A stretch of DNA of 64,000 nucleotides from a phage, in sequence record PZ445443.1, one strand, 5' to 3'. The position numbers and the translations under genes were made by a program. The notes beneath the pieces are model-generated. The model saw only the letters and a program-made list of their open reading frames with translations, had not been told where the DNA came from and did not search any database. Of this stretch, positions 14,832-28,555 are shown one piece after another; position 1 is the first letter of the stretch, and the number at the start of each line of letters is the position of its first letter.

Positions 14832-15160
14832 CAGAGATCATCGTTTCAACTGCAGGGTATGTATTCCTGACAATCATTGCGCTGGCTATTCTGGTGGCGG
14901 TGTATGGATTTGTTATCCTGCCTATTCTTGAGACATTTAGTTTGTGTCGGTGTTGGAGAAAAGCTTACGGACCACAACCGTGGAAAGACTGGTTCCATTT
15001 GGTGCGTATAGCGTTCTCTTATGCCTATGACCACTCCAGCAGTGCATGCGTAACCGGGTACCATGCCTACAACTGGAACTGGGAAGGTGTGGGAAGGTGG
15101 ACTGTTACAAAAACTATACCCTTGCGTTTATATAAAGGAAAGAACAAACTGGGCACCTGA
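14828..15160 (+). CDS. putative membrane protein
   Basis: Hydrophobic stretch IVSTAGYVFLTIIALAILVAVYGFVILPIL; ATGA overlap with upstream gene. Confidence 0.45.
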   Translation: MTEIIVSTAGYVFLTIIALAILVAVYGFVILPILETFSLCRCWRKAYGPQPWKDWFHLVRIAFSYAYDHSSSACVTGYHAYNWNWEGVGRWTVTKTIPLRLYKGKNKLGT

Positions 15161-15187
15161 TATTTTTAAATTGCCAAGTTGCCAGAA

Positions 15188-15228
15188 ATCAGGAGAATTT
15201 CTAAAATGGATTTTCTCCTGATATTTTG
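15188..15228 (+). terminator. putative intrinsic terminator
   Basis: 10 bp inverted repeat ATCAGGAGAA/TTCTCCTGAT followed by ATATTTTG, just after the last gene of the sub-block. Confidence 0.4.
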
Positions 15229-15469
15229 AACACATAGATATTTTAAAATTCTTAGAAAATCAGAAAATGGATCGAAAACTAAAATGGATTTTTTCAACAC
15301 AGGCGCGGAAAATTGTGCCAATCTATCTAGCCGTTTGCACCATATTCGAGATCACCGTTCCAGATTTCCTACACATACACACCTCTCCACCATACCTTTC
15401 TCCACTCACTCTTAGTGATTTATGACGGAAAACCCATCACTATCTTGAAGTTGCGGTGCAGTTTTCCAA

Positions 15470-15556
15470 GTACTCGATCTGTTTTTCGTTTCAAAGATTG
15501 AATTTTCTGAAAATTTTTCTCGATAAATTTCTCAGTACTCGATCTGTTTTTCGTTT
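15470..15556. repeat. direct repeats AGTACTCGATCTGTTTTTCGTTT (two copies, 65 bp apart)
   Basis: Identical 21-23 nt copies at about 15470 and 15535 inside a non-coding AT-rich region with further AAAATGGAT repeats. Confidence 0.6.
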
Positions 15557-15761
15557 TCTGAATCGGATTTTCTGGAAATCGTTCCGGCTCTCGACCTGAA
15601 ATTTTTGGGGACGAAATCGATTTTTCGTTTTCAGAAATGGATTTTTAAAATTTCTATATAGGAATATTTTAGTGGATACTATTTTATAGGAAATTGTTAC
15701 GGAGGGTAATTAGCGTGCTAATTAAATTTATTAAATGTGAGGAGTTCTCATTTAGAATTTT

Positions 15762-15778
15762 GAATGATAATCATTCTC
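15762..15778. promoter_or_regulatory. Fur-box-like palindrome
   Basis: GAATGATAATCATTCTC matches GATAATGATAATCATTATC at 15 of 16 aligned positions. Confidence 0.4.
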
Positions 15779-15892
15779 GTTTGCAGAATAACGGGCAGGC
15801 CCGGTGATTGTCTCCCGGCCCCTGTTGCCCCGGCTTGTTATTATAGTATCACACAGGACAAAGAAAGCAAGGATTTTTTGCATAAATTTTTA

Positions 15893-15917
15893 AATGATAA
15901 TGATAACCGTTCTCATT
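15893..15917. promoter_or_regulatory. Fur-box-like site
   Basis: AATGATAATGATAACCGTTCTCATT contains GATAATGATAA (about 16 of 19 to Fur consensus); second copy of a diverged tandem unit. Confidence 0.35.
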
Positions 15918-16302
15918 TTATGCAGCGCCCATCCCCGGTGGTTGTCTCCCCCGTCACCGGTGCCTGCCGTCCTTTCGATAGGTATATTGTGCTACCTGGC
16001 GGGGCCGCTGTCAACACCTTTCAAAAAAAAAATTATAACCAGGTGCGCCCACTGCCAGTACCTGGCGGGGCCAACCTGGCAGGTCCGCGCTATAAAGTGA
16101 ACAGATGAAGAAGAGGTACATAAATGAAAGGTAATATGATCCCCTGGAAAATGTAGCTATTAATGACGCTGAGGCTATCGCCCTGGTTGAAAAGGCTATG
16201 GCGGGAGCGTTGGAACATAAAGAAGAGTACGAAAAAATGATGGTTAACCTGGCAGGGGCGGCGGCTGGAGAATTCTGCCCAAAAAATAATTTTAACTAAT
16301 GG

Positions 16303-16331
16303 TTGACAGCTCGGACAGTTCTTGTTATTCT
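16303..16331 (+). promoter_or_regulatory. sigma70-like promoter
   Basis: TTGACA, 17 bp spacer, TATTCT. Confidence 0.5.
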
Positions 16332-16383
16332 TATCCTCGCAAGGTGAACAACACCACACTAATTAACAGAGAGGATAAAAATC

Positions 16384-16581
16384 ATGAACGCCTACGGAAT
16401 CAAAGTACGTCGCAGCACTCGCCAGGTGGTCACCGATCAAATGGTTTGCCGGGTGGATGTAACCATCAACAACGGGCAAGGCCTTTATAAATTTCGTCGC
16501 GGTCATAGCTATACCCTGCAACAGCTTAACCGTTGCTCCCTGACAAAAGGTCAGATCAACCACTGGTTTAATAAAAAATAA
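16384..16581 (+). CDS. hypothetical protein
   Basis: ATG after AGAGAGGA RBS, downstream of promoter. Confidence 0.55.
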   Translation: MNAYGIKVRRSTRQVVTDQMVCRVDVTINNGQGLYKFRRGHSYTLQQLNRCSLTKGQINHWFNKK

Positions 16582-25043: not shown

Positions 25044-25071
25044 AACAGGGCTTGCAATGGTCCTGTTTTTT
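25044..25071 (+). terminator. putative intrinsic terminator
   Basis: AACAGGG...CCTGTT imperfect hairpin followed by TTTTTTG. Confidence 0.4.
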
Positions 25072-25155
25072 GTTATACTTGTTTCACGGCAGGCACCTGG
25101 CGACGGGTGGAGACAATCACCGGGCCTGCCTGTCATATAAGAACTATAAAAACCG

Positions 25156-25184
25156 TTGACATCTGCCATGGGGTGGGGTAACAT
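25156..25184 (+). promoter_or_regulatory. putative sigma70-like promoter
   Basis: TTGACA with weak TAACAT -10. Confidence 0.35.
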
Positions 25185-27354: not shown

Positions 27355-27440
27355 TGTAAACAGTCAATCATGTAAATGGTTAGCATGTGAACAATCAGGA
27401 ATGTAAACAATCCAGTGTGTAAACTAATAGGTGTGTAAAA
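27355..27440. repeat. six phased TGTAAAC-like repeats at about 16 bp spacing
   Basis: TGTAAAC 27355, TGTAAAT 27371, TGTGAAC 27386, TGTAAAC 27402, TGTAAAC 27418, TGTAAAA 27434. Confidence 0.6.
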
Positions 27441-28029
27441 GTGTCATGTTGTGTCAGTTAGGTCACATTATGTCATATTGTGTCAGACAAGTTTTTCTCC
27501 TCTTTGTCAAGTGCTGCATGAAAAATTTACAATCTGGTATGGTAGCATTTTTGCGGCCCTGTTTACATTCAGGGGTGTATGTATAATCCTTGTTGTGTGG
27601 GCGTTTAGACGTCTGGACGGTCAGAAGTCTGCAGGTTAATATCTAATCTATTGGCTGCTAACTATATCCCACACAAATAGTAAGAAATATGATTGTTATA
27701 TGCGTAAACTGTAACTCATGTTATCAATCCCTGTATGTATCGCCAGTGGTGCGCATAATGGGTATTATGTTAAATTGCCCGTAATGATAAAGGTTCTCAC
27801 AATGATAGGTATTCTCATTCACCCCCACAAAATAGATTGCAAATGTTGTGCCACTGTGTGAACGGCCTAGCCTATTAATTTGCCTCACTGCCTCGATATT
27901 TGAGAATTGTTATAAGAATGAGAAGTATTCCCATTTCGTCCGCCTGGCAGCACTCCTGTAGGTCAGGTCAAAATCGTGGTAGAACTGGACCTGTTCAGAT
28001 ATTTCTGGCTGACTCTTCAGGTCTGTGTG

Positions 28030-28555
28030 GGAAAAGCCAACCTCTCCGGCGGGGCAGGGGATAGGTCAATTAAAAAATTTACGTGGTGTATGAAGCGCTC
28101 TTCAGGTAAGGCAGGTATTATGGGATGAAACCCTCTTCAGGCAATGATATTTGTGGGTGTGATATTTGCTGGAAAGCCAGATATGACGGGACTCCCGGCG
28201 GGGCAGGGGTGGTACAGACAGGGAAAATATGAAGGATGTGGTTGGGTAGATTGATCAGACAGGTAGAGTATGGAATATGTTACAAGTATGTTAAATATGG
28301 AGGTTGAATATCTGTAGGATTTGTGTGTAAAATCAAAGACTTAAGTGGTGTTGTGGTATTTTCTATAAATAATTCAAGTTTAATAGGTGATATTTGTCTC
28401 TATCCGCTTTGTGTGGTAAACAGATTCAGATGAGATTGGTTTACAAGTGTATACATAATATACAAATTAAAGATACAAGAAACCCCCCTCCCCCTTCGGC
28501 TACCATTCACCTTTTCCTCTGACTGGTACTTAAACACTTATTCAGACTCTTCAGG
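28030..28555. repeat. dispersed direct repeats CTCTTCAGG (x4) and CCGGCGGGGCAGGGG (x2)
   Basis: CTCTTCAGG at 28030, 28115, 28150, 28547; CCGGCGGGGCAGGGG at 28063 and 28212, each preceded by AAAGCCA. Confidence 0.55.

Follow-up and report, generated by a model that had tools for sequence, protein, structure and literature searches.

A conserved control region with predicted leftward promoters and Fur-box palindromes between the replication genes and the terminal early block of rV5-like phages

What does a virulent phage keep in about 1.1 kb of DNA that seems to hold no gene? The question is raised by positions 15161-16300 of a 64,000-nucleotide stretch of phage DNA (record PZ445443.1; this whole stretch is hereafter the window), for which an earlier note had proposed either a replication origin of the iteron plus AT-rich kind or a regulatory hub. 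Judged by its nearest matches, the source phage is a Vequintavirus (rV5-like): Escherichia phage Mangalyan matches positions 15100-16400 at 95% identity, and about 120 other Vequintavirus genomes do so at 80-94%. The interval is a control region that divides the replication-gene operon from an approximately 11.8-kb terminal early block in rV5-like phages, and we regard it as likely that this region is Fur-linked, conserved and the site of leftward non-coding transcription.

Conservation across the subfamily

A sensitive BLAST search matched 15744-15880, at 72-88% nucleotide identity, to stretches without annotation in Phapecoctavirus, Seunavirus, Mydovirus, Certrevirus, Henunavirus and unclassified Vequintavirinae, and the hosts of the phages with a matching region are Escherichia, Salmonella, Klebsiella, Cronobacter, Pectobacterium, Erwinia and Serratia. 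In every relative the match sits in a gene-free gap of about 0.9-1 kb, and the layout is kept in at least six further genera besides Vequintavirus, though the flanking genes differ (this includes phage Kashira). A pattern scan of IMG/VR returned mostly chance matches and recovered only about 12 true relatives. Among 11 Vequintavirus genomes whose coding flanks differ by up to 20%, 15694-16015 hardly varies, and the most variable block of the alignment is 15300-15460. The most strongly conserved part of the interval, 15730-16015, carries Fur-box palindromes, minus-strand promoters and GC-rich hairpins that were absent from the earlier note. Read on the plus strand from left to right, the plan common to these phages is as follows.

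GAAATGG/AAAATGGAT-type repeats directly after the upstream gene
Variable spacer, C-rich and G-poor on the plus strand
Direct repeats, three units of 65-76 bp, each combining a (G)GTnCTCGATC core and TTTTC with a small palindrome and a GAAAAAATTTTT tract
Between one and four AATGAGAATCATTCTCATT-type palindromes, 28-29 bp apart
GC-rich segment with the invariant core GGTG(A/T)TTGTCTC
Sigma-70 promoters on the minus strand

The proposal of a regulatory hub is thus well supported by a terminator, conserved promoters, operators for a host regulator and repeat arrays, whose order and spacing are kept across several genera. Among the records carrying the region are 16 or 17 GenBank entries labelled 'Campylobacter phage' (MG0656xx), which match it at 85-91% identity over its full length and whose host assignment looks doubtful. 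In several genera an 88-aa protein with the motif LGWQGGTVHQVA.ATGL adjoins the control region in either orientation (relatives' loci L005:1814-2080 and L008:1780-2046, minus strand; L052, plus strand, as the first gene after the region). It may be a DNA-binding regulator of the control region; no homologue of it was found in the window.

Predicted leftward promoters and leader hairpins

The right half of the interval contains two units on the minus strand, each a predicted sigma-70 promoter followed by a GC-rich hairpin, and a third unit lies elsewhere in the window.

15986..16014, minus strand: leftward promoter E2, TTGACA-17-CACAAT, 10/12; predicted start about 15979
15922..15967, minus strand: leader hairpin D2, core GGAGACAACCACC at 15949-15937; sequence very close to the third copy at 25088-25133
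15840..15870, minus strand: leftward promoter E1, TTGCTT-19-TATAAT; predicted start about 15833
15793..15830, minus strand: leader hairpin D1, core GGAGACAATCACC at 15815-15803; conserved from Vequintavirus to Phapecoctavirus
15760..15789, plus strand: weak rightward promoter-like site, TTGAAT-18-CAGAAT, 8/12, around Fur box 1; at the same position in most relatives
15993..16086, no strand: GC-rich ACCTGGCGGGGCC repeats (copies at 15993, 16059 and 16073, a fourth at 16246) and an A10 tract; conserved; one copy is the E2 spacer
25052..25134, plus strand: third promoter-plus-hairpin module, outside the interval; TTGCAA-16-TATACT (25052-25079), then GGCAGGCACC..GGAGACAATCACC..GCCTGCC

The two units in the interval read leftward, with a Fur box 50-85 nt from each start. 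A minus-strand promoter corresponding to E2 and scoring 9-11/12 lies at +212 to +241 from the GGTG anchor in the window and in 18/18 relatives, and a counterpart of E1 (TTGCAA/TTGATC-16/17-TATATT/TATTAT) is found at +65 to +71 from the same anchor in nearly all of the 18. Taken over the 18 relatives alone, minus-strand promoters at the two positions (+65 to +71 and +217 to +241) score 8-11/12, with conserved hexamers and variable GC-rich spacers. Three copies of the hairpin core GGAGAC-N3-CACC stand in the window (0.08 expected), all on the strand that would be read from the adjacent promoter. Its third copy, detected through a 22-nt exact reverse-complement match at 25109-25130, is intergenic in the early block and conserved in Vequintaviruses; because it stands directly behind a clear plus-strand promoter, the orientation of the unit is best read as promoter first and leader hairpin second. 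This third module and the terminator of the early gene before it overlap, another promoter (25156-25184) comes after the module, and it has no Fur box; an antisense promoter facing the copy at 25.1 kb was looked for and not found.

The D hairpins fold moderately (z -1.5 to -2.6). Rfam 15 gave a single chance-level match (E 0.59) in the window and none in the loci of seven relatives, so that no known RNA family was found. Composition is also oriented: the plus strand of the E1-E2 zone is C-rich in 18/19 genomes, in contrast to a sense strand that is G-rich genome-wide, and a leftward RNA would carry 5-9 G-runs as opposed to 1-3 for a rightward one.

The E2 leader of distant relatives is longer, a GC-rich element of some 100 nt with a D-like GGAGACGCCACC and a few compensatory changes. 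Outside Vequintavirus this highly conserved element (CTACCGGCGATCCACCTT..GCCCCGCCTTTTCGCCGTGGGGTGGCG) is placed between two minus-strand promoters (L006:1620-1760, L009:1640-1760 and equivalents), includes one hairpin with compensatory changes and has no Rfam match; Vequintavirus has Fur box 2 and D2 there instead. The same distant relatives carry two direct TGTAAAGA repeats on the minus strand, 10-11 bp apart and immediately upstream of the E1 -35 hexamer (L006:1618-1640, L007:1648-1670 and equivalents), which are not present in the window and may be an activator or repressor site. Phage KaOmega has CACCAGGCCAGCCGGGC as the spacer both of its minus-strand E2 and of its first plus-strand early promoter (L009:1740-1850), and the four copies of ACCTGGCGGGGCC in the window are a further example. 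This use of one GC-rich sequence in oppositely oriented promoters suggests that the promoter spacer is itself a recognition element.

The only rightward promoter candidate in the zone is TTGAAT-18-CAGAAT, and its conservation may stem from Fur box 1 alone. If real, this promoter would be Fur-repressed and convergent with E1.

Fur-box-like palindromes

15734..15781, no strand: Fur-box-like palindromes (Fur box 1), a weak one at 15734-15752, position weight matrix (PWM) score 13.1, and a strong one at 15760-15781 (TTGAATGATAATCATTCTCGTT), PWM 28.1; invariant in the Vequintavirus alignment
15893..15917, no strand: Fur box 2, two overlapping sites (GATAATGATAACCGTTCTCATT), PWM 26.5 and 16.1

The matrix was built solely from 20 distinct boxes of distant relatives. 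Applied to the 64-kb window, it placed its best matches at 15763 (28.1), 15899 (26.5), 15893 and 15734, with boxes in the window scoring 13-28, and a second cluster at 27783, 27801 and 27917, inside the terminal repeat described below. In Escherichia coli, fepB-entC, fepD-entS and fepA-fes are classic Fur-regulated divergent promoters. When the same matrix was run reciprocally over 49 kb of E. coli K-12 around the enterobactin cluster, its six best matches (9.8-15.1 bits) all fell in these three intergenic regions, which are footprinted Fur regions (PMC2189734), and the next match scored 6.8. The classical 19-mer GATAATGATAATCATTATC likewise finds its two best matches in the 64 kb at 15896 (three mismatches) and 15760 (four mismatches). 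Among the relatives, 21/21 matches to the classical consensus with at most four mismatches fall in the 160 bp directly left of the GC-rich core; the rest of the 1070-bp segments scanned has none. We conclude that the palindromes are equivalent to host Fur sites and are predicted sites of Fur binding; conceivably they may serve a phage protein of similar specificity instead. BLAST of the Fur-box promoter against 5,426 genomes gave one match (E = 3) and no specific E. coli promoter; so short a query is uninformative against this database.

Fur box 1 is wrapped by the weak TTGAAT-18-CAGAAT (8/12); relative to the stronger E1 and E2 starts the boxes lie at about +50 to +85. The region may alternatively act purely in transcription or at the RNA level, with no part in replication, a reading that we consider unlikely though far from negligible. 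E1, E2 and the copy at 25.1 kb would then make small or leader RNAs, and the hairpin would be recognised by RNA polymerase (nut/put-like), some other protein or a target RNA. In a variant of this the Fur-repressed rightward promoter and E1 form a sense/antisense pair with an overlap of about 40 nt that acts as an iron-responsive switch. The direct repeats would bind a phage transcription factor that times the switch from early to middle genes. Such a role would suit the three promoter-hairpin modules, one of them in an ordinary mRNA leader, as well as the hairpin itself, whose loop sequence is conserved while its stems vary. The TTGAAT-18-CAGAAT site, found in most relatives, encloses Fur box 1 just as Fur-repressed host promoters enclose theirs, and the region lies at the border of two temporal gene classes. 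It is less easily reconciled with hairpins that have no intrinsic terminator behind them, belong to no Rfam family and give no strand-specific covariation, or with a rightward promoter that scores only 8/12 and is missing from unit 2, and it does not account for what lies downstream of the leftward promoters, a long repeat array and A+T-rich DNA.

The number of boxes also invites the view that they are a decoy: six or seven per genome, amplified by replication, would titrate Fur and de-repress its regulon (iron uptake, RyhB, NrdHIEF), the other elements being unrelated. We think this quite improbable. Several near-consensus boxes do occur at two loci, with up to four in tandem 28-29 bp apart in relatives, and de-repression of the regulon by Fur boxes in multicopy is the established basis of the Fur titration assay. 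However, the sites are few compared with cellular Fur, and box positions are fixed relative to promoters and hairpins in all genera, with one box 9 nt from the genome end; these fixed positions and the box near the end argue for local functions in cis.

Terminator-like hairpin, repeats and A+T-rich DNA

To the left of the Fur boxes, and hence downstream of E1 and E2 as read leftward, the interval contains a further set of elements, among them those from which the earlier note had drawn its origin proposal.

15183..15228, plus strand: terminator-like hairpin at the end of the replication/accessory operon; stem 15188-15197 / 15213-15222, AAAATGGAT in the loop, then the T-run AUAUUUUG
15203..15296, no strand: A+T-rich block with three AAAATGGAT (15203, 15264, 15281); GC 22-26%; almost invariant in Vequintaviruses
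15300..15460, no strand: spacer of low sequence conservation and conserved composition, C-rich and G-poor on the plus strand (6 G vs 31 C in 80 nt)
15466..15650, no strand: three iteron-like direct repeats (about 15466-15530, 15531-15604 and 15605-15650)
15601..15638, plus strand: A/U-rich 16-bp hairpin in repeat 3, then a T-run (terminator-like); z -3.7
15707..15724, no strand: 18-bp palindrome TAATTAGC(A/G)TGCTAATTA, inside the 20-27% GC stretch 15620-15760

The 10-bp perfect inverted repeat that had been reported at 15188-15197 / 15213-15222 is present and belongs to a larger hairpin (15183-15228) with a 15-bp stem and a folding free energy of -20.9 kcal/mol (z = -5.9), a stability reached by none of 200 shuffled sequences (0/200). 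It begins 23 nt past the stop codon (15160) of the last upstream gene. In eight Vequintavirus sequences 100% of the stem cells are paired, with one compensatory G-C<->A-U pair and with G-U pairs compatible with the plus strand only, and the 15-nt loop is invariant. We read the hairpin as the predicted terminator of the replication-gene operon: it combines a stable hairpin, a U-run and a position at an operon end, with a loop that is unusually large (15 nt) and a stem that is moderately GC-rich. The spacer that follows looks like a Rho-utilisation (rut) tract in its composition, being C-rich and G-poor for a rightward RNA and G-rich for a leftward one; its skew is -0.68 in the window and -0.22 to -0.58 in 18/18 relatives.

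The repeats named in the earlier note were all recovered. The AAAATGGAT motif occurs three times within 15203-15289 and five times in the whole window against 1.24 expected, and other genera have GAAATGG/GAAATCG repeats at the equivalent position. The two-copy repeat 65 bp apart is an exact 23-mer, AGTACTCGATCTGTTTTTCGTTT, at 15469 and 15534 (0 expected), and forms part of a three-copy family with units of 47-57 nt; GATTTTCTGRAAAT-type motifs stand at 15501 and 15566 against 0.13 expected. Each iteron-like repeat comprises a ACTCGATC/ACGAAATCGA core, TTTTTCGTTT, a small palindrome (ATTTTCnGAAAAT) and an A/T tract, and homologous arrays of three units with 65-76 bp spacing, at equal distance to the Fur boxes, are present in Seunavirus, Mydovirus, Certrevirus, Kashira and LNA4. 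AAAATGGAT/GGATTTT motifs are found in the terminator loop, twice more at 15264-15289 and once per long repeat, and probably bind one protein. The 18-bp palindrome, perfect in most Vequintaviruses, with one mismatch in the window and specific to the genus, is probably a site for a dimeric protein. The A+T-rich tracts of the earlier description are likewise real, with 20-30% GC at 15180-15300, 15460-15580 and 15620-15740.

Gene content and flanking genes

The plus-strand genes that precede the interval encode rIIB, a RecD-like helicase, a methylase, a primase-helicase, a family-A DNA polymerase and endonuclease VII, with small genes besides; behind the interval, also on the plus strand, comes an array of about 40 small hypothetical genes with many near-consensus sigma-70 promoters, of which the 15 with at least 10/12 matches are all on the plus strand. 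The interval therefore does separate replication/accessory genes from a promoter-driven array of small genes, as had been proposed. Its counterpart in rV5 lies between ORF200 and ORF196.

16124..16299, plus strand: conserved small early gene, 57 aa if intact (MKGN..ENVAINDAEAIALVEKAMAGALEHKEEYEKM..), from the alignment with relatives; outside the non-coding region
16303..16331, plus strand: first strong early promoter at the head of the promoter-rich array, TTGACA-17-TATTCT with TG; P195B in the rV5 annotation

The claim that about 1.1 kb is without a credible open reading frame (ORF) holds for about 15161-16110 and fails for 16124-16299. A conserved gene in the interval, which the earlier note had named as a refutation of its proposal, is thus present in the last 180 bp only, and because of it the gene-free part shrinks to about 15161-16110 (about 950 bp). 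The 57-aa gene is broken in the window by the loss of 1 nt in a C4/C5 run, with a C-run frameshift in Mangalyan as well. In Gotham, EduardKellenberger and rV5_ev156 the frame is unbroken; rV5, nomine and naswa carry frameshifts at other homopolymers, and an IMG/VR contig is broken too. These frameshifts could reflect sequencing error, a dispensable gene or slippage-prone expression.

That the remainder codes for protein, as annotated for rV5 ORF197-199, Mangalyan gp204-207 and others, is very improbable. ORFs of 33-114 codons do exist there, some records annotate them, and the 57-aa gene next door is genuine. However, GenBank ORFs inside the interval are mutually inconsistent even between near-identical genomes, and a Pfam search with the ORFs of the interval gave no match. 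The 114-aa ORF is disrupted by an indel in rV5_ev156, and every substitution in the 43-aa minus-strand ORF is non-synonymous in the Vequintavirus alignment. No ORF of the interval is kept in the other genera compared, no conserved minus-strand ORF was found, and the conservation across genera is at the nucleotide level, in unannotated DNA. On the inconsistent ORFs, the lack of a family match, the indels and the solely non-synonymous change, the protein-coding reading of about 15161-16110 was dropped.

At 15694-15807 on the plus strand a strong Shine-Dalgarno-like GGAGGG stands 9 nt ahead of an ATG (GTG in this genome), opening an ORF of 30-37 codons that spans the 18-bp palindrome and Fur box 1; it is probably fortuitous because it is absent from other genera. 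The minus-strand ORF 16090-16359 of the window showed no homology to PVP-SE1 gp201, KpS8 gp122 or anhysbys_79, small minus-strand genes that adjoin the region in relatives.

Position relative to the genome ends

27486..27944, no strand: equivalent of the 459-bp terminal repeat (physical genome ends), mapped from the Gotham repeat_region

Vequintaviruses have direct terminal repeats of 458-459 bp that are non-coding and lie between convergent transcripts, as has also been described for LL12. A non-coding, repeat-rich interval might by the same token be a genome terminus, terminal repeat or packaging site, a reading to which we give next to no credence: the 459-bp repeat of Gotham maps to 27486-27944, 11.4 kb away and between convergent gene blocks, so that the control region is not the terminus. 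With the genome ends at 27486 and 27944, the terminus or packaging reading is refuted. The interval instead bounds, on the inner side, an early block of about 11.8 kb (16.1 kb to 27944), or about 8.6% of a genome of about 137 kb.

The terminal repeat carries a double Fur-like box (27783-27819) and a palindrome (27917-27935) 9 nt from the genome end, both kept in Gotham. Between the control region and the terminal non-coding region no extended similarity was found, the Fur-like box being all that they share. Just outside the terminal repeat is a cluster of TGTGTAAA(A/C) (27353, 27416 and 27432, with a fourth copy at 28324), of which the reverse complement is TTTACACA; the copy at 27432 fits the DnaA-box consensus TTWTNCACA.

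The location at the inner edge of a terminal block recalls the injection stop signal of phage T5. In T5 the stop region (Repeat Region 3 of the left terminal repeat) is a conserved, untranslated, repeat-bearing stretch of 1.2 kb that contains host DnaA boxes and marks the inner edge of the first 7.9% of the genome. By analogy the early block of rV5-like phages would enter first and transfer would stall at the Fur-bound region, which we judge to be unlikely by a wide measure. The parallels are a terminal 11.8-kb block of about 8.6% of about 137 kb compared with 7.9% in T5; a conserved untranslated region of about 1.1 kb that is full of direct repeats and palindromes and varies less than the ORFs beside it; sites for a protein of the host (Fur here, DnaA in T5), with more boxes nearer the terminus; and a sensitivity to daunorubicin shared by Vequintavirinae and T5-like phages. 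Against them, two-step transfer is unreported for the rV5-like group, and tblastn with T5 A1, A2 and dmp gave no match in the 64-kb window at E <= 1. The terminal repeat measures 459 bp, not about 10 kb, and excludes the region, the interval has no DnaA boxes, and Fur is cytoplasmic rather than membrane-associated.

A model of the region and the question of an origin

We tentatively propose that the interval is an insulator combined with a Fur-gated non-coding leftward unit that probably activates an origin in the style of T7 and T4; as a complete model this is possible, and we hold it with rather less than even confidence. In the left half, the terminator hairpin and the C-rich rut-like tract would halt rightward transcription, alongside protein-binding arrays formed by the AAAATGGAT motifs and the three 65-75 bp units. 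The right half (15730-16015) would work as tandem minus-strand modules, each running from a sigma-70 promoter through a GC-rich hairpin (GGAGAC-N3-CACC) to a Fur operator. Host RNA polymerase would fire leftward from E2 and E1 and produce G-rich non-coding RNAs led by the hairpins. Fur-Fe(II), bound in vivo 50-85 nt past each start, would decide between a stop after the hairpin and run-on into the 20-27% GC stretch and the repeats; on box 1 it would additionally repress the weak rightward promoter, if that is real. In the most speculative step, read-through would activate or prime DNA replication, as at the T7 primary origin or T4 oriF/oriG. If read-through primes replication, initiation would respond to the iron status of the host; the sign of this effect is as speculative as the replication role. 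The broader notion that Fur is wired into the core cis regions of a subfamily of virulent phages and gates a transcription-primed origin (perhaps also functions at the genome ends), as an iron checkpoint, we consider unlikely.

An origin of the iteron plus AT-rich kind, as first suggested, is plausible and unproven. On its side are three long direct repeats, the A+T-rich DNA adjacent to them, two predicted promoters that point into them and a T7-like replisome of primase-helicase and PolA encoded just upstream; the 17-22 bp repeats with a cognate initiator that mark iteron origins are missing. For a transcription-primed origin, E2 and E1 face 15620-15760 (20-27% GC), and no coding function was found in the transcript. 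The replisome genes next door also fit the origin step, which is nonetheless the weakest part of the model.

Several observations weigh against the model, most of them at that step. The repeat units, at 65-75 bp and three in number, are far longer than classical iterons of 17-22 bp. No recognisable initiator gene adjoins the repeats, and neither DnaA boxes (TTWTNCACA) nor IHF sites were found in the interval. The GC-skew check that had been proposed for the origin revealed no turning point in the interval, and the only one in the window, at about 29 kb, lies where gene orientation flips; the test is confounded because skew in this genome follows the direction of transcription. The rV5 paper noted the same confound and could not define the origin, and it merely marked the region as a 'non-coding' box. 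Literature searches returned no transcriptome, origin mapping or Fur-box report for Vequintavirinae. The terminal repeat, its Fur-like boxes and the DnaA-box-like repeats make 27.3-28.9 kb an equally good candidate for the origin. On the RNA side, folding energies of individual sequences do not separate the strands of the D hairpins, RNAalifold gave no decisive consensus for these hairpins or for the relatives' GC-rich element of about 100 nt, and the 19-bp spacer of E1 in this genome is unusual. The third hairpin at 25.1 kb has no Fur box and forms part of an mRNA leader; what the hairpin does may thus have nothing to do with replication. It would also be unusual for Fur to repress from operators placed downstream of a start site.

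Significance

Non-coding control regions and promoter-driven origins are already known in phages; what appears new is the wiring to Fur and the gene-less tandem leftward promoters with a conserved leader hairpin, in at least seven genera. Literature searches turned up no described equivalent of the region, and the only phage-borne Fur boxes mentioned there were those upstream of sitABCD, a cargo operon carried by temperate lambdoid phages.

Few virulent coliphages of broad host range are commoner in guts and therapeutic cocktails than those of the rV5-like group. The region offers a testable handle on their early regulation, with defined promoters, hairpins, repeats and Fur sites conserved from Escherichia phages to those of Erwinia and Pectobacterium. 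If Fur binding and gating prove true, the region would clearly exemplify how a strictly lytic phage can read a host regulator of metal status through cis elements of its own; phage performance would be affected in iron-poor settings such as the gut or infected tissue, and the region would be a site for rational engineering (origin cloning, conditional replication). Even a conservative reading corrects dozens of GenBank records with spurious ORFs in the region.

Comparison with known systems

Host promoters and clusters regulated by Fur (fepA-fes, fepB-entC, ryhB, iucA) share with the phage region palindromes of 19 bp that are clustered or overlapping, and one phage box spans the -35 to -10 of a promoter-like site as in the host. 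Unlike them, the phage boxes occur in a virulent phage with no iron-related gene downstream and at +50 to +85 from the better-supported promoters, their half-site is often GAGAAT rather than GATAAT, and further boxes lie in the terminal repeat.

The T5 injection stop signal is similar: it too is a conserved untranslated stretch of about 1.1-1.2 kb, rich in repeats and palindromes, that carries sites for a host DNA-binding protein and borders a terminal early block of about 8% of the genome on the inner side. The present region differs in lying outside a long terminal repeat, in having boxes for Fur and not DnaA, and in that no A1/A2 homologues are found in the window.

Iteron origins such as lambda ori and those of plasmids P1, F and pSC101 also have direct repeats beside A+T-rich DNA near replication genes, unlike the interval with its three 65-75 bp units, no adjacent initiator gene and no DnaA boxes. 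With ColE1 RNA II/RNA I and other antisense-controlled origins the region would share a possible convergent pair giving complementary hairpin RNAs and a G-rich, primer-like RNA directed toward a putative origin; here, however, the antisense promoter is weak and present in one of two units, sequence and structural homology are lacking, and the replicon is a phage and not a plasmid.

The T7 primary origin consists of the tandem promoters phi1.1A/1.1B and an A+T-rich region, and T4 oriF/oriG of a promoter and a downstream unwinding element at which an R-loop provides the primer. The interval resembles these in its two tandem promoters directed toward an A+T-rich stretch, with no gene to express and a predicted G-rich transcript. 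It also adjoins replication genes at the boundary of early and middle regions, in a phage with a T7-type replisome (primase-helicase and family-A polymerase). It differs in its host sigma-70 promoters, leader hairpins, Fur operators and three long repeats. Known here from its sequence, the region is set beside the T7 and T4 origins as a likeness, and membership of their class is not claimed.

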